A program made the translations under genes and the position numbers. The notes beneath the pieces were generated by a model. That model saw nothing but the letters and a program-made list of their open reading frames with translations, had not been told where the DNA came from and did no database searches. Below, piece after piece: positions 1,409 to 64,000 of a stretch of 64,000 bases of DNA (positions are counted from its first letter, which is position 1; the number at the start of each line of letters is the position of its first letter). Origin of the DNA: Gammaproteobacteria bacterium (GTDB lineage Bacteria > Pseudomonadota > Gammaproteobacteria > Ga0077536); assembly GCA_963662545.2 (NCBI GenBank), contig CAXXLL010000002.1:1184001-1248000 (forward strand), read 5' to 3'.

Positions 1409-2689
1409 CTAGTTCGCCGATTCCCATTCGAATGCCTCGAGCGACACGTCTTCGAGATTCTCTTGGGGCGTTATAATAGACACGGCCTTGACGTTCTGCG
1501 CCGAGGGTTCGAGCCCTGGAGGCGTAATCCCCTCCAGATTTGCGGCGACGGCCTCGAGCAGGGCCTTGCGTGTTCGAACGATTCCGTAGTCGCTCGACAC
1601 GAGCTGCTCGCGGCTGCGATCAGAGATAGGGCCCTGGCTTTCCTGCACGGCGGTGTCCTGCATCGCGAAGCTCGGGATCCCAGTGAAGCTCTCGCCGCGC
1701 TGCTGCCGGCCGATGTCTCTCAAGTAGTCGTTGTCGCGGTTAGCCGCGCCATGATGGGTCCCTGCAACGAATTTGACGTGCAGACCGCCACCTTGTCGCA
1801 TGTAGTCGCGCTCCTGTTCCGAAAGCGGCTTGTCGCGATAATAGTTAACCGCCCACGACCAGCAGTTGTAGTCGTCCATCGGGACCCAGGCCTGGGCATT
1901 CAGGCTCAGGTCCCCGAACGGAGCAATGAGATTGAAACACGGCAGCACGAACTGCGTGATACGCCAGTAGTAGCGTCCTTCGCCGGCATGGCGGCGCGCG
2001 CCCAGCAATAGGCCGCCATCGGTCGCGATGGTTTGGAACCGCGGGCTGCGATCGGCCGCCATGATCTCGATGATGCGGGAATCCTTCCCCAAGCCACTCA
2101 TTCCCATGATCGGATCGTCAATCAACGAACCCTGGTGCAGCCAGGAAAGGTGGCTCGAATCGAGGCCGCCCTCCATGACCTGAAAATAATTGCACTCCTG
2201 CAGCCGCCGCGATACGAAGAGGTTTTCTTCCGACAGCAACGCCCATTCCAGTGCCGGCGGCGGCGGACTTTCGCCGTCGCCGAGATACGTCCAGATGACG
2301 CCGCCGCGCTCGATGGCGGGGTAGGACTTCAGTTTGATGCGGGCCTTGATCTTGCTGTCCGTCCCTTCCGAGGGGATGTCGAGACATCGCCCTTCGATAT
2401 CGAAATGCCAGCCGTGGTAGGCACACCGGATTCCGCACTGTTCACTGCGGCCGAAATAGAGCGAAGCCTGGCGGTGCGGACAGGCTTCGTCGACGATGCC
2501 GACCCGGCCCTCGCTGTTGCGAAACGCGAGCAGCTTTTGACCCAGGATGGGCAGCCGCACGGGTGGGCAGTCCGGATAGGGCAGCTCGTTGGTCGTCAGC
2601 GCCGGCAGCCAGTAGCGGCGGAACAATGCCCCCATGGGTGTACCGTCGCCGGTGCAGGTCAGGGTTTCGTTGTCGCTCGGTTTCATCAT
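1409..2689 (-). CDS. Rieske non-heme iron oxygenase alpha subunit (phthalate dioxygenase/O-demethylase-like)
   Basis: CPH...CAYH Rieske motif and DSSHLSWLH mononuclear iron motif; start trimmed to MMKPSDNE. Confidence 0.85.
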   Translation of the reverse strand: MMKPSDNETLTCTGDGTPMGALFRRYWLPALTTNELPYPDCPPVRLPILGQKLLAFRNSEGRVGIVDEACPHRQASLYFGRSEQCGIRCAYHGWHFDIEGRCLDIPSEGTDSKIKARIKLKSYPAIERGGVIWTYLGDGESPPPPALEWALLSEENLFVSRRLQECNYFQVMEGGLDSSHLSWLHQGSLIDDPIMGMSGLGKDSRIIEIMAADRSPRFQTIATDGGLLLGARRHAGEGRYYWRITQFVLPCFNLIAPFGDLSLNAQAWVPMDDYNCWSWAVNYYRDKPLSEQERDYMRQGGGLHVKFVAGTHHGAANRDNDYLRDIGRQQRGESFTGIPSFAMQDTAVQESQGPISDRSREQLVSSDYGIVRTRKALLEAVAANLEGITPPGLEPSAQNVKAVSIITPQENLEDVSLEAFEWESAN

Positions 2690-2819
2690 GAGACGGAATC
2701 TCCCCGATCCGTGTGCAAGCACGTCAGCGGTGCGAATCGAAAAGAGTAAAAACCCATTATCATGAATCGAGGGACCCATTCGCAATCCGGGATTGTCGCC
2801 GCCGCACCGACCGTATGAA

Positions 2820-3221
2820 ATGAGCAACATAACACGCAAGCTGATCGCGGTGGCCGCCCTCGTGCCCATTGCCGCCGGCGCGTGGTGGGCCACGCGCGTC
2901 ACCGATGGGCCGCCGTCCCCGCATGCCCTGTGGCGCAATGGCGTTGTCATCCATGTGCGGGGCTGCGACCATCCGGGCGACGAAACGACACTGCTTACTT
3001 GTGCTGGTCTTTATTGCGCGAAGTCGGTGACCGAGATGCTGACCAATGCGCAGCAGGCAGGATTGAGCGTGATCGTGCGCGAACGCGACGGCGGCGCGAT
3101 TCGCATTGTCGGCTCCATCGATCAATACCTAAACGCGCGGACTCTGCCGACTGGATTCGAGTGCAACATGCGGGACTATCGACGCGCCGTGCCGAAGTTG
3201 TTCGTCGCCGGACAGCGGTGA
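2820..3221 (+). CDS. Hypothetical exported/membrane-anchored protein
   Basis: N-terminal hydrophobic segment, four Cys; fills the gap between flanking genes. Confidence 0.5.
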   Translation: MSNITRKLIAVAALVPIAAGAWWATRVTDGPPSPHALWRNGVVIHVRGCDHPGDETTLLTCAGLYCAKSVTEMLTNAQQAGLSVIVRERDGGAIRIVGSIDQYLNARTLPTGFECNMRDYRRAVPKLFVAGQR

Positions 3222-3294
3222 AGCGTTGATCATTTCGAGGGTTCCGCATCTATCCTCGGATTCGGTCCCGTTCACATAAATCGAGGAGGACTGC

Positions 3295-4335
3295 ATGAAA
3301 GGCGTCCTAGTCAAGGAATGGACGACCTTCGATCGACTCGAACTCGTCGAGGTGCCGGTGTCTGAAACCGGCGTCGACGAGGTCGGGATCCAGATCGAAG
3401 CCGCGGGCGTGAGTTTCGCAACCAGCCTGGTGGTGCAGGGCAAATACCAGCGCCGACCGCCACTGCCGTTCGTGCCCGGTACCGAAGTCGCCGGTATCGT
3501 CACCGAGGTCGGGCGCGATGCGAAGCGTTTTTCGGCGGGTGACAGGGTCTGCGCTGTCCTCGACTGGGGCGGTTTGGCAGAAGCGACGAGCGCAAGTGAG
3601 GTCAACGTATTCGCCCTGCCAGACGAACTCGAGTTCGCGCGGGCGATTGCCTTCACCAATTCTTACGCAACGTCGGCCGCGGCCTTGACCTGGCCGCATC
3701 TGCTCAACGTTAAATCCGGCGACTGGCTGCTCGTGCACGGCGCGAGCGGGGGCGTCGGCATGGCCGCCGTCGAAATCGGTAAGTTACAAAAAGCGACGGT
3801 CATTGCAACGGCGGGTTCGACCGAGAAACTCGAGCTGGCACGCGCACACGGGGCGGATCACCTGATCAATTACCGTGCATCGGATTTTCGCGAGGCGGTA
3901 CTCGAGCTCACGGCGGGGCGGGGCGTGGACGCGGTGTTCGACCCAGTCGGCGGCGAAGTCTTCACCCAGTCGCTGCGATGTATCGCGCCGGAAGGACGCA
4001 TCATGCCGGTCGGTTTCGCCAGTGGCGAGATCCCGCAGATCCCGGCCAACCTGCTGCTCATCAAGAACATCACGGTGTGCGGCTTGAACATGGGGCTTTA
4101 TTACGGATGGACGCCGAAGGATATGCGTTACGAATACGAAGACCGTATGCGCACCCATATGGACCGACTGTTCGAATGGTTTCTGCAGGGGTACCTCGAC
4201 CCGGTCGTTGCCAAGACCTATCCCCTGCCGCAGTTTCGCGAGGCGATGGACGACATCCTGGAAAGACGTGCTGTCGGACGCATTGCGGTCGTGATGGGCG
4301 AGGAGGCCCGTCGGCTGGGGCATGAGTCCGGCTAG
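3295..4335 (+). CDS. NADPH:quinone oxidoreductase (MDR/zeta-crystallin family)
   Basis: PFVPGTE, HGASGGVG and DPVGG motifs; GAGGAGG RBS. Confidence 0.9.
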   Translation: MKGVLVKEWTTFDRLELVEVPVSETGVDEVGIQIEAAGVSFATSLVVQGKYQRRPPLPFVPGTEVAGIVTEVGRDAKRFSAGDRVCAVLDWGGLAEATSASEVNVFALPDELEFARAIAFTNSYATSAAALTWPHLLNVKSGDWLLVHGASGGVGMAAVEIGKLQKATVIATAGSTEKLELARAHGADHLINYRASDFREAVLELTAGRGVDAVFDPVGGEVFTQSLRCIAPEGRIMPVGFASGEIPQIPANLLLIKNITVCGLNMGLYYGWTPKDMRYEYEDRMRTHMDRLFEWFLQGYLDPVVAKTYPLPQFREAMDDILERRAVGRIAVVMGEEARRLGHESG

Positions 4336-4511: not shown

Positions 4512-5429
4512 ATGAACGATAAAAAGATTCGTTTCGGAACGACGCTCCGCTCACCCTACGACGTCGCCCAGTCGTCACGCGAGATCGAGGCGCTCGGTTT
4601 CGACGTGCTCGGTTGCGGCGAACACGTCAGTTTTCACGGCGACACGGCGAACGGGTTTATTTCGCTATCGGTGGCCGCGGGCGCGACGAAGGATATTCAG
4701 TTGATGAGCGCGATCACATTGATCCCGCTCTACCCGGCGGCGCTCCTGGCCAAGATGGGTGCGGCACTGGATGTTGCCTCGAATGGGCGATTTATACTCG
4801 GCGTTGGTGTCGGGGGTGAGTTTCCCAAGGAGTTTGAAGCTTGCGGCGTGCCGTTGAACCAGCGAGGGTCACGCACCGACGATGCGCTCGAAGTCATTCA
4901 ACGGACCTGGACGGAAACCAACGTCACCTATCACGGGCGTTACACGACTTTGAACGAATTCAGTCTGAAGCCGCTTCCAATTCAGAAGCCGCGCCCGCCG
5001 ATCTGGGTGTCGGGAAGAAAGGACGTAGCGATGAAACGCGCCGCCCGCTACGGCGACGGTTGGATCCCCTACATGTATACCCCGGAGCAACTCGCCGACA
5101 GTGTTCAGAAAATCGAACGATACGGCGACGATTTCGAGCGCGACCTGTCCGGTTTTACTCACGGTATGTATATCTTCACCGCCGTCCATGAACACGGTGA
5201 CACGGCGGTCGAAATGGCGGCGGAGAAACTCGGACGGCAGTATGACCAGGATTTCAGCAAACTGGTTCACAAATACGTCCTCGCGGGGGATCCGGACTAT
5301 TGTAAGGCGCGGCTGAACGAATACATCGATGCCGGCGCGCGTTTCTTGTTCCTGTCGGCGGCGTGCCCGGATGACTACATCGATCAAAACCTGGCGATGA
5401 TCGCCTCGGAGGTCATGTCGGCTTATTGA
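4512..5429 (+). CDS. LLM-class flavin-dependent oxidoreductase
   Basis: GEH, LDVASNGRFILGVGVG, PLPIQKPRPPIW and AARYGDGW motifs. Confidence 0.9.
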   Translation: MNDKKIRFGTTLRSPYDVAQSSREIEALGFDVLGCGEHVSFHGDTANGFISLSVAAGATKDIQLMSAITLIPLYPAALLAKMGAALDVASNGRFILGVGVGGEFPKEFEACGVPLNQRGSRTDDALEVIQRTWTETNVTYHGRYTTLNEFSLKPLPIQKPRPPIWVSGRKDVAMKRAARYGDGWIPYMYTPEQLADSVQKIERYGDDFERDLSGFTHGMYIFTAVHEHGDTAVEMAAEKLGRQYDQDFSKLVHKYVLAGDPDYCKARLNEYIDAGARFLFLSAACPDDYIDQNLAMIASEVMSAY

Positions 5430-5520
5430 ACAGCGGAATTCCGGAATCGGTTCGCGGGCGAGTTACCGGAACCGAAGTTCTGCTTCGTTTAGACTCAAGC
5501 CTCTTTCAACCACCACAGAC

Positions 5521-6303
5521 GTGATGGCATTGCGTAGTTTCATTCGCCTTTTGCTCGTCTGCCTTGTGTGCAAGGTATCGATGGGTACGGCCACGGCGGC
5601 GACGTTTACACTGTTCGACGATACCGCAGGTACCTTGCCCGGCCTGCAGCCGTGGTTGTTTTATGCAGCCCTCGGCGGCGTCGCCTCACAAGCCGTGCTC
5701 CCGGGCGTCGGCGCAGGACTGACGACGGATGACGCCGTAGCGGCCGGATACAGCAATACGATCCCCCTGATCAACGTGATCAAGAATGGCGCATTCCCGG
5801 CGCTGGACCGTGCGACAGGATTCAGCCTGGATTTCGAACTCCAGATCCTGGTCGAGTCACACAACAACGCTAACCGCGCAGGATTCAGTGTGGTCCTCCT
5901 GGCAGATGACAATCTCGGCATCGAGATTGCATTCTGGGAAGACGAGATCTGGGCCCAGAACGACGTCTTTGTCCACGACGAAGGCGTGAGCTTCGATACG
6001 ACGGCGATCGAAATCCAATACTCACTGGCGATTCACGATGCGGGGTATACGCTCTCGGCAAACGATACCGAAATTCTCAACGGCGATCTGCGGGAGGACT
6101 ATTCGGTGTCCAAGCCGATTGCACCCTATACGTTGTCCAATTTCCTGTTCCTCGGGGACGATACGAGCAATGCCCAGGCGGATATCGCGCTGGGCCTCGT
6201 AGAGCTACGAACCTTGACCGCCGTTCCGATCCCGCCTGCCTTTGTGTTGTTCTTTACGCCGTTTGCCGCGACGATGATCGCTGTCCGAAGAAGGCGCTCG
6301 TGA
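5521..6303 (+). CDS. Secreted protein with VPLPA-type exosortase sorting signal
   Basis: Signal peptide; C-terminal AVPIPPA + hydrophobic helix + RRRR. Confidence 0.75.
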   Translation: MMALRSFIRLLLVCLVCKVSMGTATAATFTLFDDTAGTLPGLQPWLFYAALGGVASQAVLPGVGAGLTTDDAVAAGYSNTIPLINVIKNGAFPALDRATGFSLDFELQILVESHNNANRAGFSVVLLADDNLGIEIAFWEDEIWAQNDVFVHDEGVSFDTTAIEIQYSLAIHDAGYTLSANDTEILNGDLREDYSVSKPIAPYTLSNFLFLGDDTSNAQADIALGLVELRTLTAVPIPPAFVLFFTPFAATMIAVRRRRS

Positions 6304-6359
6304 AGCCAGTGCTTGCTCGCCACTGACAACGCCCGCTAGACGGCGATCGATGGTGAGCT

Positions 6360-7685
6360 TCAGGCGGGTTCCGGCGCTCCCCCGGCCCGTTCGCGCACAT
6401 GTGCGCGCACGTCGGCCGCGATCTTGAGCACGATCAGCAACATCAGCGCGGGCAGGGTCGAATCCAGCGCCATTACCAAGAATCCCCCGAAGATGATGGT
6501 CACATGCATGACCATGATGCGCTTGTAGGGCTCACCCATCTGCCGCGCTATCTGGCGTCCCGCATATTCCCGACGGCCGATGAAATTCAGATAGAAAGAG
6601 AGGGCGTGGCTCATAAATAATGCCGCCAAGGCCGGCCACAGGATCACGAAATCGGCGGCGACTTGCGAAAGCGGGATCGCACTGCCGGCGCCGGCGCCTT
6701 CGATGAAAAAGCCATAGATGAACAGTAGGTGGACGATCATGAACCCGCCGAAATGCCCGAGGAAAAAGGGGCCGATGAACAAGATTGCCCATTTACCGAT
6801 CACGGCCATCTTGAGCAGGTTAAACACGCCGATGATGGCGCTCTCCGCCCAGTAGAGAACCATGATTCGGCCCATGTCCCAGCCGAAAAGAATGACGCCG
6901 ACGAGCGGTACGAGATTGGCCGCGAACAATGCGATGGTCGACGGTGAAAATAAGCTGGGCGGCGATTCATGCCGGATTGTATGGGATGGTTCCGGGTCAA
7001 GCGGCTTCGATGGAATGCGAGCGTCACTTGCCGGTGGATCGCCCGCCCCGACGACGGCTTCCGGCGCCGGACCGTCCGGGATCGGTGTCCCCAACGCCCC
7101 GCGTATACCGAAAAGTAGTTCACCGGCCCGCGCTTCGAGGATATTGGAGCCGAAATCCACGGGCACTCCCAGGTAATCGAAGGCCAGGTGCGCACCGCGC
7201 CAGCCGGTCCCCGCACGTTCATCCGGCTCGGCCGTGCGCAGATTGTGCATGCGTGCGGCGCTGCATTCGCCGCTGACGCCGATGCCGAGGATCTCGATGC
7301 GGATGATCATCATGCCGGATTTCACAATCACCACTTCGCGACCGAACAGCAAGCCGAGAAAGAACACGCCGATGAAGGCCACGCCGACGGACCATCCGAG
7401 AAGCTAAAAGGCGCTGAACAGCTTGGATGTCAGCGAGAACAAATCACCACCGCCCTCGAACTCGGTCGATCCACCGACCGTGAACAAGGGAATGCAGAAC
7501 ACCCCCAACATGACACCGGCGATGATGGTCGCGGCCCAGGACCGCTTGAACGGAAACACCAGGCGAAGCTCACTGGCGCGCTCCCGCGGCCCTTCAATAC
7601 CGAAACGGATCTTCGGAGCAAGCGGGCCCAGTGCGCGCAATCGCGCCGTGGTCAATGCGCCTTGCTCGCTCGAGATCGTTGACAT
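6360..7685 (-). pseudogene. Integral membrane protein (DUF6498-like C-terminal domain) interrupted by an in-frame TAG at 7404-7406
   Basis: ORFs 7404-7685 and 6360-7382 are in the same frame: ...FSAF*LLGWSVGVAF...; YWAES and PYKRIMVMH motifs. Confidence 0.65.
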
Positions 7686-7772
7686 GGCGGCGGGGTCTAT
7701 TGGTTCATTCGGTACGGGCCCACTTGCGCGCGAATCAAAAAACGCGGCGGCACGCCAAGCAGACGTCGAAAA

Positions 7773-9209
7773 TCAGGTACAGACCGCGGGCTTGCGATCC
7801 AGCCACGGGCGCGCTGCTTCGATCTGAGCGCCGATCCGGATCAAAGTTGCCTCATCGCAGTCTCGCCCGACGAACTGCACGCCGATCGGCAGCCCGTCGT
7901 CCGACCAGTTCATCGGCACCGTGATCGCGGGCGAGCCCGAGGCGTTAAAGGGCGCAGTGAAGCAGCAGTCTGGGCCCATGAGCGTGTCGTCGTAGGTTTC
8001 GACGTCGAGCGACATGTCGTAGTAGCCGTGCGTGCGTGGCAGCATCGGCACGGTCGGCATGAGCCAGGCGTCATACGCCGCCATCTCACCGAGGAAAGCG
8101 CGGCACGTCTGTCGCATGGTTTCGATGTCGTTTGAATGATCGACGCCGGCAACTCGGCGGCCTTTTTCGATCATCGACCAATACAGCGGCGCCATATCGG
8201 CCGCCGTCGCGTTTCGGCCCACGGCTTCGGCCATGCCGGCGAAAAACGCGGCAGTCTGCACAGCGATGATCGACGTGTAAGTTTTATAAAGCGGCCAGTA
8301 TTCGTAGGGCACCGGACGCGGCTCGACTGCGTGACCGAGATCTTCCAATAGCGTTCCGGCGTCGAGTACGGCCTGCTTCACCTGCCCGTCGACAGGCGAC
8401 CCGTGATCGGGTGTGTCCGTGACCATTGCAATCCGGAGCTTGCCGGGATCCGTGCCGACTTCTTTGGCATAGGGTCGCGCGGGTGCGGGTGCTTGATATG
8501 GTTCGCCCGCAAGATGTCCGCCCGTGATATCAAGCAACAGGGCCGTGTCGCGAACGGTGCGCGAGACGCAGAAAAAGGTCGCGCCACCGTACCAGAAATC
8601 GACCACCGCGGGCGCGAGGGTGATGCGCCCGCGCGCGGGTTTGAGACCGACCAGTCCGCAGTTCGATGCCGGGACACGGATTGATCCGCCGCCGTCAGAA
8701 CCTTCCGCCATCGGCACGACGCGCGCGATCACCGCCGCCGCCGAGCCGCCACTCGATCCGCCCGGCGTACGCTCGAGATTCCACGGATTGCGCGTGATGC
8801 CGTGCATGGACGATTCGGTCGAAAGGGCCCAGCCCTGCTCGGGCGACGTAGCTTTGGCGAAGGGCAGCATCCCGGCCGCCTTCATGCGCCGGATGAGTTC
8901 CGAATCGCCAGGTGCGACGATGTCCTTCAGGTAGGGGCAGCAGTTCGTGATCGGATGGCCCTCCCAGGCGCTCGCGAGTTCTTTCATCAGCCACGGCACG
9001 CCCTTGAGCGGACCGTCGGGCAGGGCGGGATCGTCGGCCGCCGTGCGTGCTGCTTCGTAGGCCCGGTGCGTCAAGAAATTGAGTTGGGGATCAATGGTCT
9101 CAGCGCGCTCGATTGCTGCGTCGACGACTTCCCGCGCGCTAACCTGGTTCGCGCGCACCAGTTCTGCCAGGCCGACACCGTCATAATCACCGTATTCTTT
9201 GAAAGCCAT
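7773..9209 (-). CDS. Amidase (amidase-signature family)
   Basis: GGSSGGSAAAV and GSDGGGSIRVPAS motifs; start MAFKEY with GGAG RBS; divergent from nitrile hydratase. Confidence 0.9.
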   Translation of the reverse strand: MAFKEYGDYDGVGLAELVRANQVSAREVVDAAIERAETIDPQLNFLTHRAYEAARTAADDPALPDGPLKGVPWLMKELASAWEGHPITNCCPYLKDIVAPGDSELIRRMKAAGMLPFAKATSPEQGWALSTESSMHGITRNPWNLERTPGGSSGGSAAAVIARVVPMAEGSDGGGSIRVPASNCGLVGLKPARGRITLAPAVVDFWYGGATFFCVSRTVRDTALLLDITGGHLAGEPYQAPAPARPYAKEVGTDPGKLRIAMVTDTPDHGSPVDGQVKQAVLDAGTLLEDLGHAVEPRPVPYEYWPLYKTYTSIIAVQTAAFFAGMAEAVGRNATAADMAPLYWSMIEKGRRVAGVDHSNDIETMRQTCRAFLGEMAAYDAWLMPTVPMLPRTHGYYDMSLDVETYDDTLMGPDCCFTAPFNASGSPAITVPMNWSDDGLPIGVQFVGRDCDEATLIRIGAQIEAARPWLDRKPAVCT

Positions 9210-13516: not shown

Positions 13517-13861
13517 TCAACCGACGAGTACTTCGCGGTATTGATCTTCGTTGAAGCCGACCAGGAGCGTCTTCCCGACCTTTACAACAGGCGCGCGCAG
13601 GTTGCCGGTCGGGCCGAGCATGGCGTCGACCACCTCATCCGCCGGCGCGCCCTTGGTCTTGAAGGTCGAGACCTTCTTGCCTTTCGACACGACGACTTTG
13701 TTGGCGGCGGACGCCAGATCGCGTGCGTCGCTACGGCCGAGCTTACGCGATGCGAGCACCGTTTCTTTGGGCACCAGCCCGTTGGCATCCATGAACTTGG
13801 ATGCTCTGCCGCAGCTGGTTCAGCCCTTGCGGTAGTAATACCAATTGATCTGACGGCTCAT
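13517..13861 (-). CDS. ArsC/Spx-like thioredoxin-fold selenoprotein (U14, UxxC)
   Basis: MSRQINWYYYRKG-TGA(13820-13822)-TSCGRASKF joins in frame to the 91-aa ORF containing GNLRAP...LLVGFN; SECIS-like hairpin 13785-13804. Confidence 0.85.
13785..13804 (-). promoter_or_regulatory. Putative SECIS element of the ArsC-like selenoprotein
   Basis: GCAUCCA-AGUUCA-UGGAUGC perfect 7-bp stem; loop begins 22 nt after the UGA. Confidence 0.75.
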
Positions 13862-14242
13862 CGGACATGCCCTGAAGTCGATTGCGGACGCCGGTGGCCC
13901 GGCGCACCTGCAGTTTATCATTGGCGCCTGGACAAACGCGGTCTCGACCGCGATTAACGAGAAAAAAATGCGACTTCGAGCGCTTTCGTCAGGCGGAATT
14001 CGCCGAGCGGGCTCTGGGGGCTAAGCGGCGGTATCGTGGTTGAGGTGGGCCGTTCGTCCGTGGACCGCGTCCACACCCGGATTTGAGCTGGAAGCTAATG
14101 GCGACAGGTTTCTCGAATTCAATAATTCATTACATATTATGTATAACTATATAATATATATAAATATATATAGGGTACATAAAGTTGATTCTAGTTTGCG
14201 ACAAGCCGGATTGTCCGTGCGAACGGGTTCGAGCGTGATCCG

Positions 14243-57697: not shown

Positions 57698-57889
57698 TAA
57701 GCCATTTGTTGTGATCGCCCGCGTCGATATCCCCTCGTTGTTTCTAAAGACAATAATGCCTGCCCGCAATCAAGTAAATGCCTGTCCGTGGCGAATGGCG
57801 CGGTGCCACACCGAAGATTTGTTAGCATTACCGGGCCCGCCACGAGGCATGCGGAATGGCCCAGGGCACCGCAGCCAGGAGAAACAAGC

Positions 57890-58666
57890 TTGAACCCGGA
57901 ATTCGTCAAACTCGACCTCATCGAGGACTTCATCGCACTCGTTCAATTCGCCAACCCGCCGGTTAATGCGCACAGCCAACCGTTGCTTGAGGAGATCACC
58001 GCGACCTTCGATACGGTCAGTGACCGTGACGATATCCGTGTCGTCGTGTTGAGCGGGGAGGGCAAGGTGTTCTGTGCCGGAGCCGACATTAAGGAACGGG
58101 TCGGCACCGAGCCGCAGCACGGCGATCACTGGCATCGCAGCCGACGCGCGCGAGAGGCCTACCACAGCATCATGGAATGCAGAAAGCCGGTCATCGGTGC
58201 GCTCAACGGGCCGGCACTCGGCGGCGGGCTGGCGTTCGCGGCGTCCTGCGACATCCTGATAGCGAGCGAAAGCGGTTGCCTCGGGCTTCCGGAAATCGAC
58301 GTGGGGCTCCTCGGCGGCGGGCGCCATGCGCAGCGCCTGTTCGGCCATTCACGGTTGCGGCGCATGATGTTGACGGGGATGCGCGTCTACGGCCCGGATT
58401 TATATCGGCTCGGTATAGTTGAAGCCTGTGTGCCGCCCGAAGATCTCATGGATGCCGCGCTTGGCATCGCACGGGAGATCGCCGCCAAGAGCCCGCTGGC
58501 AGTCAAGCTCGCCAAGCACGCGCTCAATCAGATCGAGGAAATGAGCCTGCGCGACGGCTATCGGTTTGAACAGACCATGACCGGTGAGCTCGGCCAGACG
58601 GAAGATTCGAAAGAGGCGATGCGCGCGTTCGTAGAGAAGCGTGCGCCGGTGTATACCGGGCGGTGA
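57890..58666 (+). CDS. Enoyl-CoA hydratase/isomerase
   Basis: FCAGADI, ALGGG, LPEIDVG and AFVEKRAP motifs; TTG start with AGGAG RBS. Confidence 0.9.
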   Translation: MNPEFVKLDLIEDFIALVQFANPPVNAHSQPLLEEITATFDTVSDRDDIRVVVLSGEGKVFCAGADIKERVGTEPQHGDHWHRSRRAREAYHSIMECRKPVIGALNGPALGGGLAFAASCDILIASESGCLGLPEIDVGLLGGGRHAQRLFGHSRLRRMMLTGMRVYGPDLYRLGIVEACVPPEDLMDAALGIAREIAAKSPLAVKLAKHALNQIEEMSLRDGYRFEQTMTGELGQTEDSKEAMRAFVEKRAPVYTGR

Positions 58667-58746
58667 TCGAATAGCGGGAGCGCCTGCGCCCGCCTCGCCA
58701 ACAGGCTTATAATCGGACCGTCGTTCAGGCGAAATGGAGGCGTCTA

Positions 58747-59838
58747 ATGGCCAGCCTGTATCACGATTCACTGTATCCGGTACGCGATAAGCTCGACGAA
58801 GCCCATCGTGACATCGTCGTATCGTTGTCGCGGCCCGGCACGTGGTGGTCGGGCGCGGAGCGCGCCGCTCTCGCAGAAAGCGTGCGCAAGGCGCGGCGCG
58901 ATGCCGGTATTCAGGACGATGCGCCGGAACCTGCGAGCGAGCTTGCTGAGGTGCCGGATAGCGCGCGCCGTGTGGTGAGCAAGATCGCGGTTTCGCCGGA
59001 AACCATCGATCGCTCGTTGCTCGACGACGCCCTGGCCGATGGTCTCGGCGAGGAAGCTTACGTGGAAGCAGTTGCTATTGCCGTACGCCTTTCGAACGTC
59101 GACGATTTCGCGCGCGGCCTCGGGGTCGAAGCGCCCGCCTTGCCACCCGTCGTAGCAGGTGAACCGTCGCGGGTGCGGCCCGCCGAAGCGGTCGACGAAG
59201 GTGCGTGGCTGCCGACGATCCCGAGCGGCGAGGCGGGCGGCGAGACGGGTAAGCGCCTATACGGGAAGGAATGGGCCGCGAACATATTGCGTGCGCTGAG
59301 CCTGGTGCCAGACGAATGCGCATCGATCATCGCGTTGGAGGACGTCCAGTACCGCTCCGTGAAGACGATCATGGACTTCGATTTTACCCACGATCCCGCC
59401 ATAGCGCGCTCCCAGGTCGAGCTCGTCGCCGCGCGGGTGTCCGCGCTGAACACCTGTTTCTACTGAACCAGCTGGCACGTGATGCTGCTCCGGGAGAGCG
59501 GCCAGGCGAAGGCAAAGCACTATGAACTCCAAGGCGTTACCGATCGATCGCTCGAAACGGGAGTAGAAAACGAAGATGTCCTGCTTGCATACGCCGAAGC
59601 ATTCTGGAACAAAGACCGTGGCGTACTCGACCGCGCGCGCGCGGCGCTTGCCGAACGAATGGGCGCGGGCGCTGTCGTCGAGGCGGCGATCACGGTCGCC
59701 AATTTCGGCATGGTGGACCGAATTGCCAATTCGATCGGGATCCCGCTCGACGCCATGGCTGTTTCGGCCACCAGCGATTTCCGCGCCGTACTCGGCATTG
59801 ATCAGTTCCCTTCCGCGCGCAATACGCTACCAGCGTAA
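58747..59838 (+). CDS. AhpD/CMD-like selenoprotein (U240, CxxU), directly upstream of selA
   Basis: RSQVELVAARVSALNTCFY-TGA(59464-59466)-TSWHVMLLRESG in frame with the downstream helical domain; SECIS-like hairpin 59484-59502. Confidence 0.8.
59484..59502 (+). promoter_or_regulatory. Putative SECIS element of the AhpD-like selenoprotein
   Basis: GCUGCUC-CGGGA-GAGCGGC stem with one G-U pair; loop begins 24 nt after the UGA. Confidence 0.65.
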
Positions 59839-59895
59839 ACCTGACGGCGACGGTCGCGGTACGCGGCGGCAGATTCACGCCGTGACAGTGGGCCT

Positions 59896-61326
59896 ATGAG
59901 CATGAACCGCACGAAAAACGAATTGCTGCGGGCGGTGCCTTCGATCGACGAACTGCTGCGCATCGAGCCCGGCGAAGCGCTGGCGGAACGCTACGGTCGC
60001 GAACTGACGACCAGCGTGCTGCGCGAGGTGGCCGATAACGTGCGTGCGGCGCTCGTCAAGCGCGGCGAAGCAGAGCTTGACGAGGCGGCACCGGAAGCGA
60101 TGGTCGAAGCCGCTGCCGACCGGATTGTCGTGCTACTCGAACCCCGTCTCAAACCGGTTTTCAACCTCACCGGCACGGTGCTGCATACCAATCTCGGCCG
60201 CGCGCCGCTGCCGGTCGAAGCGATCGCGGCGATGACGACAGTCGCGCGCGGCGGTAGCAACCTTGAATACGATCTCGACACTGGACGCCGCGGCGATCGC
60301 GACACGCACCTCGAAGACTGGATCTGCCGCCTGACGGGAGCCGAGGCGGCGACCGTGGTCAACAACAACGCGGCGGCTGTGTTGCTGCTGCTGAATACAC
60401 TCGCGCGCCGCAAAGAGGTGCCAGTGTCGCGCGGCGAACTGGTGGAGATCGGCGGCGCATTTCGGATCCCCGACGTCATGGCGCGCGCCGGTTCAAAATT
60501 GGTGGAAGTCGGCTCGACCAACCGCACCCACCTGGCCGATTACGACCACGCGCTGAATGATCGCACGGCACTGGTGATGAAAGTGCACACGAGCAACTAC
60601 GTCATCGAGGGATTCACTGCCGAGGTCACGGTGAAGGATCTGGCGGCTCGGGCGCATGCCCATGACATTCCCATGGCCGTCGATCTCGGCAGCGGCACTT
60701 TGGTTGACCTCACCCGCTACGGTCTGCCACGAGAGCCCACGGTAGTCGAGACCCTGGCCGACGGCGCCGATCTCGTGACCTTCAGCGGTGACAAGCTGTT
60801 GGGTGGACCGCAATCCGGCATCATCGCGGGGCGCCGTGACCTCGTTCGCCGCATCAAGCGGAACCCGATGAAGCGCGCACTGCGTGTCGACAAGTTGACC
60901 ATCGCGGCGCTGGCGGCGGTCTTGCGACTGTACGCAGATCCCGCGCGCTTAACCGAGCGCCTGCCGGCGCTGCGTTTGCTGACACGGACCGCCGACGAAA
61001 TCGAGACGCTTGCCCGGCATCTCGTGCCGGTCCTCCAAATCGCGGTTGGCGACAAAGCAAAGGTCAACGCCGTTCCCTGCAAGAGCCAGATCGGTAGTGG
61101 TGCCCTGCCGGTCGATCTCTTAGCGAGCTTTGCATTGCGGGTCGAACTGCCCGCCGCCCGCGGCCGCGCGATCGAACGCCTGGCACAAGCGTTTCGCCGC
61201 CTGCCCATACCCGTGATCGGCCGCATCGACGATGGCGCTTTCGTCATGGATCTCCGCTGTCTCGATGATGAGCGCCGCTTCATCGAGCAACTGCGCGACG
61301 TGAGCCACTCGAACCCGCTCGCATGA
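59896..61326 (+). CDS. selA: L-seryl-tRNA(Sec) selenium transferase
   Basis: [38 protein letters not shown] and [11 protein letters not shown] motifs. Confidence 0.97.
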
Positions 61327-63242
61327 TCATCACGACCGCTGGACACGTCGACCATGGCAAGACGCTGCTGGTCAAGGCGCTGACTGGCGTCGATACCGAT
61401 CGCCTCCCCGAAGAAAAGAAGCGCGGGTTGACGATCGAACTCGGCTTTGCCTATCGCGATCTCGGCGATGGCGAGACCACCGGCTTTATCGACGTGCCCG
61501 GCCACGAGCGGTTCATTCGTACCATGGTGGCGGGCGTTAGCGGGATCGACGTCGTGCTCTTCGTCATCGCGGCCGACGACGGTCCCATGCCGCAGACGGC
61601 CGAGCACCTGGCGATCCTCGATCTGCTGGATGTCCGCCGGGGTGTTGTCGCGCTAAGCAAGATCGATCGAGTGGATAGCGAACGCGTCGACGAGGTGTCT
61701 GATGCGATGCGCGAGATGATGGAGCCCACAGGACTTGCCGGGAGTCCCATCGTGCCGGTGTCTGCGATGAAGGGTACGGGCGTAGATGCATTGCGCGCGG
61801 CGATCCTCGATCTCAAAAAGGATCTACCGGCGCGTTCCCAGGACGGCAATTTTCGGCTGGCCATCGATCGCAGTTTCCTGCTCAAGGGCACGGGACGCGT
61901 AGTTACGGGCACGGTTTTTTCGGGCAAGCTCAGCGTGGGTGGATCGGTCCACCACGTACCGAGCGGCGGCGAGCTCAGGGTGCGCGCCATCCACGCGCAG
62001 AACAGTGATGCCGATGCGGCCCTCAACGGGCAGCGTTGTGCGCTCAACATCACGGGAGCCGGGTTGCGCGAGGCGGAGATCCATCGCGGCGACTGGATCG
62101 TGGCGGCGGGCGCCGCGTTCGCGACCAAACGTTTCGACGCGAACATCCACGTGCTCGAAAGTGAAGCGCGCGCGTTGCGCAATCGTACGCCCGTGCACGT
62201 TCACGTAGGCGCGACCGATACCATTGGCCGCGTCGTCACCTTGGACGGCAATGCCATACAAGCGGGCGGAGAAGGGCGGGTGCAGATCATGCTCGAGCGC
62301 GAGATCCACGCCGTGCGCGGCGATGCCGTTATTCTCCGCGACCAGTCCGCGCGCCGCACGATGGGCGGCGGCCGCGTCCTCGACCCGCTCCCGATCGTGC
62401 GGGGACGCACGCGCGCCGTGCGCATGGCCTATCTCGATGCGATGGCGTTGGAGAATGCCGGCGCTGCTGCCCGGCGCAGCCTCGATTGCCTGCCGGAAGG
62501 CATCGAACTCGAGCGGTTCGCGCATTCATGGAACCTGACGGCCGGGCAGGCGGGCGAACTCTTCGACGGGTTGCCGATGATGTCAATCAGGTCGTCCGCC
62601 GGCACCGTCGGCATACCGGCTGAGCGGTGGCAATCCTTGAAGTCCGGCGTGCTGGACGCGCTGCAAGCCATGCATGAGGAAGCGCCCGATCACAAGGGCG
62701 CGACCGAAGCCTCGCTCGCCCGGGCACTGCCAATGCCGCCTTCCGCGGACCTCTTGAACGCTGTCCTCGCCGAGTTGATCGAAGACCGCGCGATCGTGCG
62801 CGAAGCCGGCGCGTTCCGCCTGCCAGGCTATACGCCGACGCGCTCGCCGCAGGACGAAGCGCTGTGGCAACGGATTCATCCTCTGCTCGATCCATCTGAC
62901 CTGAAGGTGCCGGTGGTGCACGACATGCTGGATTCGCTGGGCATGAAGTTCGAAGACTTGCGGGACTTTCTCGACCGCTCCGCGCAGCAGGCTTACCTGG
63001 TCAAGGTGAACGCCAAGCGCTATTTTCTACCGGCGACGATGAAACGCCTGGTGGCGATCGTTCGTGATCTCGTGCAGGCTAATCCTGATGGCGTGTTCAG
63101 TGTTGCCGACTACCGCAACCTGTCGGGGATCGGGCGTAACGCCGTGGTCGATATCCTCGAATACTTCGATCGCATCGGGTACACGCGCCGGCACGGACCG
63201 GTGAGAAAAATACTCGATCCTTCGCGCGTCGACGGCGGTTGA
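61323..63242 (+). CDS. selB: Selenocysteine-specific elongation factor
   Basis: [34 protein letters not shown] and C-terminal winged helix [12 protein letters not shown]; ATGA overlap with selA. Confidence 0.97.
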
Positions 63243-63290
63243 ACGGCTGCCGATGCCCGGCGTCGCCTTGAGCACCCTTGGGGAGAACGA

Positions 63291-64000
63291 ATGAGTCGGA
63301 CTATTTCGGTAGATACCACAGCCGGACCGGTCGCGGGCACCTGTGATACGCGCTTCGCAGCGGTATCGGAAACCTTCATCGAAAACTTCGAAAAGCGCGA
63401 CGAGATCGGCGCCAGTGTTTCGATCACCCTCGACGACCGGAAGGTGGTCGATCTGTGGGGCGGCCGGAAGACCCCGGACGGGGACCCCTGGCAGGAAGAC
63501 ACGGTGTGTACTGTGTTTTCATCGACCAAGGGCGCGATGTCGCTCTGCGCACACCTGCTGGCGGATCGCGGCGTGCTCGATCTCGACGCCCCGGTGACCG
63601 ATTACTGGCCCGAGTTCGCGGCCGGCGGCAAGGAAGGCACGCTGGTGTCGATGACGCTCGATCACAGCGCGGGCGTCCCGCACTTGCGAGAGCCCGTGCG
63701 CGCAGGCGGTTTCTACGACTACGCTTATATGGTCGAGCGCGTAGCCAACGAGTCGGCTTTTTGGACGCCCGGTACGCGCATCGGCTACCACGGCTTTACG
63801 ATGGCGTGGACCGTGGGAGAGGTCATTCACCGCGCGGCTAAAGAGCGCCTGGGCGCGTTTTTCCAAGAGCAACTTGCGGGTCCCCTCGGCCTCGAATTCT
63901 GGATCGGCTTGCCGGCTGTCTTCGAATCCCGGGTGGCACCGATGATTCAGGCCGAGCCGGACGAGCCCTGGATGGCGACGCGCTTCATCCAGGCAGCGCT
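63291..64000 (+). CDS. Serine hydrolase (beta-lactamase class C/EstA-like esterase), runs off window end
   Basis: Manual translation: VVDLWGG, VFSSTKG (SxxK), YWPEF and GYHG motifs; GGGAG RBS. Confidence 0.85.
   Translation, partial: MSRTISVDTTAGPVAGTCDTRFAAVSETFIENFEKRDEIGASVSITLDDRKVVDLWGGRKTPDGDPWQEDTVCTVFSSTKGAMSLCAHLLADRGVLDLDAPVTDYWPEFAAGGKEGTLVSMTLDHSAGVPHLREPVRAGGFYDYAYMVERVANESAFWTPGTRIGYHGFTMAWTVGEVIHRAAKERLGAFFQEQLAGPLGLEFWIGLPAVFESRVAPMIQAEPDEPWMATRFIQAA

Follow-up and report, generated by a model that had tools for sequence, protein, structure and literature searches.

A predicted AhpD-like selenoprotein of family NF041238 encoded ahead of selA and selB in a gammaproteobacterial genome

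The 64,000-nucleotide stretch of a Gammaproteobacteria genome analyzed here (the window) very probably encodes one 363-residue, AhpD-like selenoprotein of the NCBIfam family NF041238, set in a lineage-specific selenium gene cluster, where the gene is probably co-transcribed with the selenocysteine (Sec) genes selA and selB. Selenoprotein genes are known to tend to travel and stay with the genes for Sec decoding, which would be the simplest reason for this placement; we consider a role bound specifically to SelA or SelB less likely. The gene provides a clear case of a real selenoprotein cut at UGA by ordinary gene calling, and the redox selenoproteome of this genome, comprising at least nine genes, would largely go missing in the same way. 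The family itself is already known, NF041238 being curated as 'alkylhydroperoxidase-related (seleno)protein'. To this knowledge our analysis adds an active-site assignment that puts Sec at the AhpD Cys133 position inside a complete relay, a predicted Sestrin-like two-lobe architecture, and a conserved locus where selAB is headed by one or two selenoprotein genes, overlap-chained in some genera.

Gene structure and layout of the locus

The features of the locus, in window coordinates, are the following.

57788..58666, + strand: enoyl-CoA hydratase family gene (PF00378, NF005073; start codon uncertain), left border of the conserved locus
58708..58713, + strand: TATAAT hexamer read from the sequence, weak and a possible -10 element only
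58736..58740, + strand: Shine-Dalgarno-like GGAGG read from the sequence, 6 nt upstream of the ATG at 58747
58747..59838, + strand: AhpD_rel_CFYUT (seleno)protein gene, translated as 363 codons, one of them for Sec, and a TAA stop
59464..59466, + strand: predicted Sec codon UGA (U240, second residue of the redox pair C237-x-x-U240), with a homologous TGA in relatives
59484..59502, + strand: candidate SECIS hairpin from minimum free energy fold and alignment, stem 59484-59490 paired with 59496-59502, apical loop CGGGA (59491-59495)
59839..59895, + strand: 57-nt spacer to selA, folding as a hairpin (-20.8 kcal/mol)
59896..61326, + strand: selA, L-seryl-tRNA(Sec) selenium transferase (TIGR00474, 587 bits against a cut-off of 268; PF03841)
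61323..63242, + strand: selB, Sec-specific elongation factor (TIGR00475, 417.5 bits against a cut-off of 242), its start overlapping the selA stop by 4 nt
63291..63998, + strand: beta-lactamase-fold esterase gene (LipL-like, PF00144; cut by the window end), right border of the conserved locus

The preliminary description had joined two open reading frames, 58747-59466 (239 aa) and 59479-59838 (119 aa), through a TGA into one gene, had recognized in C-F-Y-U-T-S-W-H the AhpD signature CxxC-x3-H with Sec as second residue, and had noted that no clear ribosome-binding site serves the downstream half and that selA begins 57 nt further on. Each of these readings is borne out. The two open reading frames share one frame, and translation of 58747-59838 with TGA read as Sec yields 363 residues in which U240, in the context NTCFYUTSWH, is the sole recoded codon. 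Read by eye, the sequence upstream of GTG 59479 contains no purine-rich, Shine-Dalgarno-like stretch, and the gene closes with the TAA at 59836-59838, 57 nt ahead of the selA ATG at 59896.

The selenoprotein gene, selA and selB share one strand with spacings of 57 nt and -4 nt, and a terminator scan finds no terminator-like site between them, a layout from which we judge that the selenoprotein gene is probably co-transcribed with selAB. Upstream, the TATAAT hexamer sits in the 80-nt gap that separates the enoyl-CoA hydratase gene from the selenoprotein gene; a consensus scan calls no promoter there because the -35 region is poor. Over 58600-59900, the only site of any kind returned by the promoter and terminator scan, a terminator-like one (59356-59375), lies inside the gene and is within chance expectation. 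The spacer before selA lacks the T-run of a terminator. The 3' arm of its hairpin covers GGGCC immediately ahead of the selA ATG, and the spacer is not conserved among the genomes G000, G001 and G002 (42 nt in G001, 30 nt in G002).

Predicted selenocysteine decoding

Evidence for recoding comes from comparison with homologues. Among 43 homologous loci, drawn from several phyla, 41 carry TGA at exactly the same codon, within C-x-[YF]-U-x3-H, while L027 and L043 end ahead of the motif, and the frame stays open for more than 100 codons past the TGA in all 40 loci checked. A survey of 41 related genomes gave 24 matches over the family cut-off, 23 of them with an in-frame TGA and the last a fragment that stops before the Sec position. 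The preliminary description had proposed this alignment, naming a downstream part out of frame or a SECIS stem without conservation as observations that would refute its reading; the frame proved continuous and the stem covaries.

The hairpin has a 7-bp stem that begins 17 nt after the UGA. Across 44 aligned sequences 90.7% of its cells are paired, against 32-54% in slid controls, and its covariation score (0.271, against 0.03-0.16 in controls) was reached by none of 500 shuffles. Double changes occur at four of the seven pairs, with 14 cells changed on both sides, and the loop reads CGGGA or CGUGN with an invariant G at loop position 2 (column 29). The case for the hairpin is based on these alignment pair counts. 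Folded as a single sequence, the region does no better than its shuffles (z -0.20), RNAalifold gives a weak consensus that keeps five pairs (-1.04 kcal/mol), and 16 of 43 sequences leave the outermost pair open. Independent support comes from the outer pairs only, because the inner ones coincide with the conserved L-L-R-x-S codons. An Rfam scan of 58000-64000 at E <= 1 returned no SECIS family, its only match being a chance one to the snoRNA sR51 (E 0.31).

The genome contains adjacent selA and selB, a tRNA-Sec (62 bits, C2:1267634) and selD (283 bits, C2:1272288), with selC and selD about 20-25 kb away; ARAGORN finds no tRNA within the window, the tRNA-Sec being outside it. SelB carrying Sec-tRNA(Sec) would bind the hairpin at 59484-59502 and decode the UGA at 59464-59466 as Sec.

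Profile matches support membership in the family. An HMM search gives 352 bits for NF041238, well above its cut-off of 175 (E 4e-105), and the match runs unbroken across both halves, from residues 12-355 to positions 1-356 of the 357 in the profile. The Pfam CMD domain PF02627 matches residues 211-261 with 29.3 bits (gathering score 23), and CFYUT at residues 237-241 is the family motif C-F-Y-U/C-T. These matches, with the CxxU-x3-H motif, support the earlier view of one gene that contains Sec and belongs to the AhpD/CMD superfamily. The window protein shares with NF041238 the C-F-Y-U-T motif, the length of about 360 aa, the two-part architecture and a full-length match above cut-off; most members have an extra N-terminal CxxC (R-x-A-x-x-C-x-L-C) that is absent from the window protein and its close relatives, and we see no essential difference between the two. 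The suspicion that homologues are often mis-annotated was also well founded: 119 of the best 120 database homologues are N-terminal pieces of 230-286 aa that cover 61-66% of the query, and the two such fragments that were retrieved both stop at the TGA, ending in ...CFY. A full-length Cys form, P0018 (CFYCTSAH), exists among the database homologues.

The same prevalence of fragments, together with the way in which standard gene callers split or truncate the gene and with a third paralogue in the genome that has an additional TGA in place of an Arg codon, perhaps a real defect, is what could be said for two separate genes, or for a gene broken by a nonsense mutation or sequencing error; this reading is already contradicted and can practically be dismissed, given a TGA shared across phyla with an open frame behind it, a single HMM match that spans it, the conserved hairpin downstream, the complete Sec machinery, the missing ribosome-binding site of the downstream half, and the recovery of all sampled 31-mers of the stretch in six runs from three studies.

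The selenoprotein is not the sole client of the Sec machinery, because the genome contains at least nine Sec genes, namely three copies of the AhpD_rel_CFYUT family, two of them far from selAB, and six further candidates. A first, permissive filter had yielded 568 selenoprotein candidates, and 13 were scanned after a hairpin filter was added. Four candidates (L084, joining PaaD and PaaE, L086, L088 and L089) were rejected as false joins of ordinary genes, and L085, L090, L092 and L093 gave no family match. None of the 13 molybdopterin-oxidoreductase matches in the genome has an in-frame stop.

Predicted fold and active site

The structure model (pLDDT 93.3, pTM 0.93) predicts an all-helical, two-lobed AhpD/CMD fold that would form a Sestrin2-like internal pseudo-dimer. 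The best VIA-align match is human Sestrin2 (5cuf_A, Z 17.9, rmsd 3.3 over 248 residues of model 1-333, 9% identity), and single AhpD-like chains reach Z 10-12.5. A Foldseek search of the PDB returned nothing at E <= 0.001, with AhpD-like chains ranked top. Over the whole chain, Sestrin2 (5cuf/5dj4), which has two AhpD-like lobes per polypeptide, is the best structural match; no Sestrin Pfam family matches at E <= 0.01, so that the likeness is one of fold and not of sequence. Sestrin2 has its redox-active Cys in the N-terminal lobe, whereas the active pair of the window protein is in the C-terminal one.

A profile built from 32 members matches solved AhpD-like proteins over positions 192-338 (6k40, E 7e-16; 3c1l, 2pfx and 2oyo), and its positions 225-263 align without gaps to residues 111-149 of the M. 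tuberculosis AhpD chain 1gu9. In this alignment the E, C, U and H of the family fall on Glu118, Cys130, Cys133 and His137, with U240 at Cys133, and E225, C237, Y239, U240 and H244 are invariant in the 32 members. The proton relay is described as Glu118-Cys130-His132-Cys133-His137 in M. tuberculosis AhpD and as Glu36-Cys48-Tyr50-Cys51-His55 in PA0269 (PMC3141380). By alignment, the corresponding relay E225-C237-Y239-U240-H244, borne in the model by the C-terminal lobe, is complete, with Sec at the position of the second Cys. The window protein resembles M. tuberculosis AhpD (1gu9/1knc) and P. aeruginosa PA0269 (2o4d/2ijc) in its helical fold (class matches of Z 7.7 and Z 10.2) and in the identical spacing of the relay, Glu-x11-Cys-x-(His/Tyr)-Cys-x3-His; it differs from them in having Sec for the second Cys, a chain twice as long and a degenerate second lobe.

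The protein would most likely cycle between a thiol/selenol form and a C237-U240 selenenylsulfide and, by analogy, may act as an AhpD-type reductase or peroxidase, either on a peroxiredoxin-like partner or directly on hydroperoxides. A role in reducing AhpC can be proposed by analogy only, because the score against the profile for AhpD proper (TIGR00777) is 19.1 bits, far below the subfamily cut-off of 191.95, and because a Pfam search finds no ahpC-like gene flanking the selenoprotein gene, whose neighbors are the enoyl-CoA hydratase gene and selA.

Placement before selAB and comparison with known systems

Synteny with selAB holds in part. Adjacency is not a property of the whole family: it is seen in one of the 43 loci sampled across phyla, and outside this bacterial family selA and selB are absent from the fetched flanks of the other 42. 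Within the bacterial family, the order selenoprotein gene, selA, selB is kept in six genomes of three genera (G000, G001, G002, G005, G006 and G020). We compared 19 selA loci, the window and 18 fetched from relatives, and found a selenoprotein gene upstream of selA on the same strand in 11. The gene is AhpD_rel_CFYUT in the six genomes just named, while in five others (G009, G011, G017, G019 and G023), representing sister genera, a UGSC selenoprotein gene and a partner gene occupy the same slot; G006 contains both cassettes. In seven loci selA is not preceded by a selenoprotein gene, and in one (G007) that gene is divergent. The junction from UGSC to partner is an ATGA overlap in five of six loci, and that from partner to selA, read by eye in L070, L073 and L074, is a TTGA, GTGA or ATGA overlap. 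Among the 18 fetched loci the enoyl-CoA hydratase gene is syntenic in 10 and the esterase gene in 8, which together with the selenoprotein cassette, selA and selB make up a lineage-specific selenium gene cluster. Across the NF041238 family no gene neighbor is conserved, the best being common to 5 of 41 loci, and gene context therefore offers no clue to the substrate; ABC-transport, SDR, CoA-transferase and TauD genes recur as neighbors in closely related loci.

A tree computed without row G016_a separates the copies linked to selA from the 12 unlinked paralogues found in this bacterial family. The linked copies may constitute one orthologous lineage of a single origin. Independent recruitment of the gene to selA was considered and found unsupported: the tree needs two changes, the starred branches force only one, and 28% of bootstrap trees give one.

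An alternative to simple co-maintenance is that the selenoprotein frame acts as a leader through which expression of the machinery tracks selenium supply by positive feedback. When Sec-tRNA(Sec) or SelB is limiting, ribosomes would stop at UGA-240 and leave 372 nt untranslated; this stretch and the spacer hairpin would then lower selA and selB expression through Rho polarity or lost translational coupling. The leader would be AhpD_rel_CFYUT in some genera, UGSC with its partner in others, and both in one. The 11 of 19 selA loci with a selenoprotein gene ahead agree with such gating, as do the overlapping stop and start codons that chain the UGSC versions into selA and the hairpin that, in the window, covers the region immediately before the selA start; a spacing of -4 is said in a review to couple translation most efficiently (PMC12548453). 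Against it, eight of the 19 loci have no same-strand selenoprotein gene ahead, the +57 nt spacing of the window falls in a range for which the review reports weak coupling, the spacer is not conserved among G000, G001 and G002, and the sequence after the UGA has no C-over-G bias for Rho loading save in the final ~90 nt. Stop and start codons that overlap are, by the same source, frequent in operons at large (PMC12548453), and the pattern could reflect one ancestral cluster with differential loss and not repeated selection, since the selA-linked copies may share one origin. We regard gating as unlikely on this balance. A literature search did not find a proposal of UGA-leader control of selAB among the papers it listed, which is weak evidence of absence; the locus makes testable this unexplored idea, in which the Sec machinery would be expressed only as far as Sec is successfully decoded ahead of it. 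If true, ribosomes would arrive at selA efficiently only once Sec had been inserted at the preceding UGA, and the arrangement would amount to a translation-level positive-feedback switch fitting synthesis of the machinery to selenium supply.

Even less probable is a dedicated redox partner of the Sec machinery, kept beside selAB for selenium handling, for example by holding selenide, a persulfide or perselenide carrier, or SelD or SelA reduced. Adjacency persists across three genera between which protein identity falls to 41%, the linked copies cluster apart from the 12 unlinked paralogues, and a thiol/selenol pair would suit selenium trafficking. Such a role fits poorly with the absence of selA and selB beside all 42 loci beyond this bacterial family, with the two distant copies in the same genome and with the occupation of the same slot by UGSC, a different selenoprotein, in sister genera. 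The family was likewise not seen beside selA in 8 of the 14 related genomes that have it, a count in which adjacency cannot be taken as excluded for several genomes because their assemblies are fragmented.

A selenoprotein gene that has stayed with the Sec-decoding genes, our preferred reading, has precedents in both its parts. The literature has included AhpD-like CxxU selenoproteins since 2005, in sets from marine metagenomes that include the subgroups 'AhpD-like 1' and 'AhpD-like 2' (Zhang, Fomenko and Gladyshev 2005, PMC1088965; Zhang and Gladyshev 2008, PMC2398784). As far as these reports describe them, they share with the window protein the CxxU motif, the COG2128/PF02627 type and a bacterial SECIS with a conserved apical G. 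For the placement, fdhA is reported in or beside selABC operons and explained by co-transfer (Zhang et al. 2006, PMC1794560). The fdhA-selA-selB-selC clusters of Proteobacteria likewise have a selenoprotein gene in or beside a Sec-decoding operon, with co-transfer and co-maintenance (PMC1794560; Mukai 2021, PMC8124441), and the layout of the window fits this type in its single strand, short spacers, lack of a terminator and order kept in six genomes. The linked gene differs, being an AhpD-like thiol oxidoreductase here, and UGSC in sister genera, instead of a formate dehydrogenase.

The selAB operon of E. coli offers the closest comparison for regulation. Its 5' leader is described as containing a SECIS-like element, recognized by SelB, that ties expression to Sec-tRNA status (bioRxiv 10.64898/2026.03.03.709296; PMC8124441), and in the window, too, the transcript of selA is predicted to carry upstream an RNA element that SelB recognizes. 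According to the same sources, the E. coli element does not code for protein and represses initiation from a position 3 nt away from the Shine-Dalgarno sequence of selA. The SECIS of the window, by contrast, is predicted to be a functional one and forms part of a coding sequence, some 390 nt upstream of selA; any putative effect on selA would need termination at the UGA. Gating, were it true, would follow a principle different from that of the SECIS-like repressor element of E. coli selAB.

An in-frame UGA codon in a catalogued selenoprotein family

Translation of positions 58747-59838 with TGA read as selenocysteine (Sec) joins two open reading frames (ORF) that share one frame, 58747-59466 and 59479-59838, into a protein of 363 residues with a sole recoded codon (59464-59466), embedded in N-T-C-F-Y-U-T-S-W-H. 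A GGAGG element lies 6 nt 5′ of the ATG at 58747, and reading the upstream sequence by eye revealed nothing similar ahead of the GTG at 59479. The preliminary description had accurately reported this joining, the CxxU motif and the selA-selB genes that follow:

58747-59838, + strand, selenoprotein gene
59896-61326, + strand, selA, 3′ of the selenoprotein gene
61323-63242, + strand, selB, 3′ of selA

The read-through protein matches NCBIfam NF041238 (AhpD_rel_CFYUT, alkylhydroperoxidase-related (seleno)protein) at 352 bits (cut-off 175) in one unbroken stretch, residues 12-355; Pfam reports the CMD domain alone (211-261). The family had thus been curated before, under a name that contains the motif first spotted in the sequence. 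AhpD-like CxxU selenoproteins are known from the Sargasso Sea and GOS metagenomes (PMC1088965; PMC2398784) and are included in the list of a 2026 review (PMC13188914).

A homologue scan restricted to one genome per species yielded 43 related loci spanning, according to record titles, Pseudomonadota, Acidimicrobiia and other Actinomycetota, Binatia, Acidobacteriota and Myxococcota. TGA occupies the homologous codon, within C-x-[YF]-U-x3-H, at 41 of them, the remaining two stopping before the motif, and the frame stays open for more than 100 codons past TGA in all 40 loci inspected for continuity. Among 41 related genomes, 23 of 24 NF041238 matches over the cut-off carry an in-frame TGA, the other being a fragment short of the site. 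When 44 sequences are aligned without gaps from the TGA onward, a 7-bp SECIS stem falls at +21..+27 with +33..+39, capped by an apical loop C-G-U/G-G-N in which the G at position 2 is invariant. The stem is paired in 90.7% of cells, versus 32-54% with the 3′ arm slid, scores 0.271 for covariation versus 0.03-0.16, shows both-side changes in four pairs and has values attained by 0 of 500 shuffles, but its inner pairs coincide with conserved Leu-Leu-Arg-x-Ser codons, which limits the hairpin evidence. Sixteen of 43 sequences do not form the outermost pair, the RNAalifold consensus holds five pairs only, and the single-sequence fold is unremarkable.

The window's genome (G000) encodes tRNA-Sec (62 bits, C2:1267634-1267725) and also selD, and sampled 31-mers of the gene stretch were all found in 6 runs from 3 studies. 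Together with the conserved TGA, frame and stem, these observations rule out a pseudogene or sequencing error for practical purposes. The initial assignment of the gene as a selenoprotein gene is upheld, and it is an ordinary, already catalogued one. Its homologues are indeed mis-annotated, as had been anticipated: among the best 120 matches from a collection of 5.8 billion proteins, 119 have lengths of 230-286 aa and a query coverage of 61-66%, and the two that were retrieved terminate at ...CFY. The sole full-length protein among these 120, P0018 (367 aa), is a Cys form (CFYCTSAH).

A predicted pair of AhpD-fold lobes

A profile built from 32 NF041238 members matches solved AhpD-like proteins at positions 192-338 (6k40, E 7e-16), and its positions 225-263 match residues 111-149 of the M. 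tuberculosis AhpD chain without gaps. Counted along this alignment, the family Glu, Cys, Sec and His fall on Glu118, Cys130, Cys133 and His137; the relays described are Glu118-Cys130-His132-Cys133-His137 in that enzyme and Glu36-Cys48-Tyr50-Cys51-His55 in PA0269 (PMC3141380). The equivalents in the window protein (E225, C237, Y239, U240 and H244) do not vary across the family alignment. Its AlphaFold model is all-helical and confident (pLDDT 93.3, pTM 0.93), with human Sestrin2 as the top whole-chain structural match (Z 17.9, rmsd 3.3, 248 residues, model 1-333) and single-domain AhpD-like proteins matching the C-terminal part (Z 10-12.5). Foldseek ranked the same proteins first, yet with E-values above its threshold.

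From the structure and profile matches, we read the modelled protein as two AhpD-fold lobes fused in one chain, in which the C-terminal lobe is predicted to be catalytic and the N-terminal lobe appears degenerate yet conserved (P-G-T-W-W-S-G-A-E-R). By analogy, the chemistry would most likely be an AhpD-type cycle, with thiol/selenol passing to selenenylsulfide. A family-wide neighbourhood comparison found no common gene neighbour that would hint at a substrate. Most NF041238 members carry an extra N-terminal C-x-x-C (R-x-A-x-x-C-x-L-C-x-x-R-K-A-A-L-S-P; alignment A2, columns 88-100), which the window protein, that of its 93%-identical relative (L001) and the actinobacterial members lack.

Selenoprotein genes beside selA

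Synteny with selAB does not extend across phyla, where selA and selB lie within the fetched flanks, some ending at contig ends, at one of 43 loci (L001); it does recur within the window's bacterial family. Of 41 genomes sampled there, 22 have selA and 14 NF041238. Comparison of 18 fetched selA loci with the window (19 in total) revealed a recurring backbone of enoyl-CoA hydratase, a slot, selA, selB and esterase; 10 of the fetched loci carry the hydratase marker and 8 the esterase marker. AhpD_rel_CFYUT fills the slot in six genomes of three genera (G000, G001 and G002; G005 and G020; G006), and a gene of another selenoprotein family, UGSC (NF041046), does so in G009, G011, G019, G023 and G017; G006 has both cassettes in series. 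A selenoprotein gene thus lies 5′ of selA on the same strand at 11 of 19 loci, is divergent in one (G007) and is absent in seven. In a maximum-likelihood tree, selA-linked NF041238 copies fall into two groups, both well supported, that meet a clade of 12 unlinked paralogues at a node left unresolved, and the linkage pattern may come from a single ancestral cluster.

Two neighbouring observations concern relatives. The selA of the 93%-identical relative (G002:C67:16750-18120, L064) is interrupted by an in-frame TAG; either the assembly may be in error there or the gene may be broken in that MAG. In G004, the ORF directly 5′ of selA (L068:5620-6144, - strand) encodes a 174-aa rhodanese-domain protein weakly similar to rhodanese-type selenoprotein families, with a 4Fe-4S protein gene nearby.

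The slot UGSC gene encodes 175 aa with U95 (…AYGH-U-GSCTSG…) and scores 108-119 bits, just below the cut-off of 125; its SECIS region has a CGUGC apical loop, as in the AhpD-like gene. A conserved ~352-aa partner, 68-80% identical between genera, with the motifs CTDGLPVVIPT, EMQCTTH and SWCAGPHGN and no Pfam or NCBIfam match, always follows this gene; within the bacterial family, 23 of 24 genomes have paralogues of the partner.

UGSC genes in the sister-genus slot and 3′ partner genes (orthologues of the L066 partner)
L066: UGSC gene 867-1391, + strand; partner gene 1391-2455, + strand
L069: UGSC gene 6784-7335, - strand; partner gene 5720-6781, - strand
L070: UGSC gene 6822-7346, - strand
L073: UGSC gene 6487-7011, - strand; partner gene 5429-6484, - strand
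L074: UGSC gene 1913-2437, + strand; partner gene 2437-3498, + strand
L080: UGSC gene 7340-7864, - strand; partner gene 6270-7337, - strand

Reading the printed junctions by eye, the UGSC stop and partner start overlap as ATGA at five of six loci, and the partner stop and selA start overlap (TTGA, GTGA or ATGA) at three.

The window's genome holds two further NF041238 copies. In the third paralogue (G000:C3:2095565-2096602, - strand, L046), the N-terminal lobe contains an additional in-frame TGA at a position that encodes Arg in both other copies; this copy may be a pseudogene or contain an assembly error, or the codon may be a second site of recoding. An Acidimicrobiia locus (L040) carries tandem NF041238 genes (5995-7194 and ~7250-8400), each with an in-frame TGA (CFYUTNGH and CFYUAVGH).

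Other Sec-related genes of G000
Window 13520-13921, - strand, ArsC-family (seleno)protein gene with in-frame TGA (…YRKG-U-TSCG…); NF041106 at 109 bits (cut-off 85), Pfam ArsC also matching
C2:936107-937243, - strand, probable Sec gene, WAxxUGC ResA-like protein (294.8 bits, cut-off 300)
C2:938684-939148, + strand, probable Sec gene, peroxiredoxin-like W-U-P-x-C (UxxC) protein
C2:1605087-1605728, - strand, probable Sec gene, second such peroxiredoxin-like protein
C2:919625-920251, - strand, probable Sec gene, short YciW/AhpD-like C-H-L-U (CxxU) protein
C3:2104976-2105557, - strand, probable Sec gene, UGSC protein (139 bits, cut-off 125), with a paralogue of the 352-aa partner ahead of it
C2:1272177-1274462 (L095:1678-3963), - strand, selD, one 761-aa ORF

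This ORF joins SelD to a pyridine-nucleotide-disulfide oxidoreductase domain at the N-terminal end, an arrangement that PMC2398784 mentions as the Ndh-SelD fusion type, and tRNA-Sec lies ~4.5 kb from it.

Proposed explanations: co-maintenance, partnership and polarity

Selenoprotein genes inside Sec-machinery operons have been explained by co-transfer and co-maintenance, as worked out on fdhA-selABC (PMC1794560; PMC8124441). This explanation covers the window locus, whose gene order adds a new case to a tendency already known. Since G000 has further NF041238 copies and further Sec genes, the window protein is not the machinery's only client; the suggestion that it is a dedicated partner is unproven.

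Also unproven is the proposal that Sec decoding in the upstream selenoprotein gene governs selAB expression through polarity, an attractive, testable regulatory hypothesis carried by the local gene order. It draws some support from the overlapping-codon chains of sister genera, as translational coupling is most efficient at -4 spacing (PMC12548453). However, the +57 spacing in the window is unfavourable to coupling, a leader selenoprotein gene is missing from 7 of 19 selA loci, Rho-site composition was looked for after the UGA and not seen, and a single ancestral cluster may account for the pattern. The 57-nt spacer itself folds as a hairpin over the bases preceding the selA ATG, yielded no terminator in a promoter/terminator scan, and lacks conservation in both G001 and G002.

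Polarity from a UGA-containing leader would work differently from selAB control in E. coli, where SelB binds a SECIS-like element beside the selA ribosome-binding site (bioRxiv 10.64898/2026.03.03.709296; PMC8124441); among the literature matches listed, none proposes UGA-leader control of selAB. None of the 13 molybdopterin-oxidoreductase matches of G000 contains an in-frame stop. Compared with fdhA-selABC, the window locus and its sister genera have thiol-oxidoreductase selenoproteins instead of FdhA.
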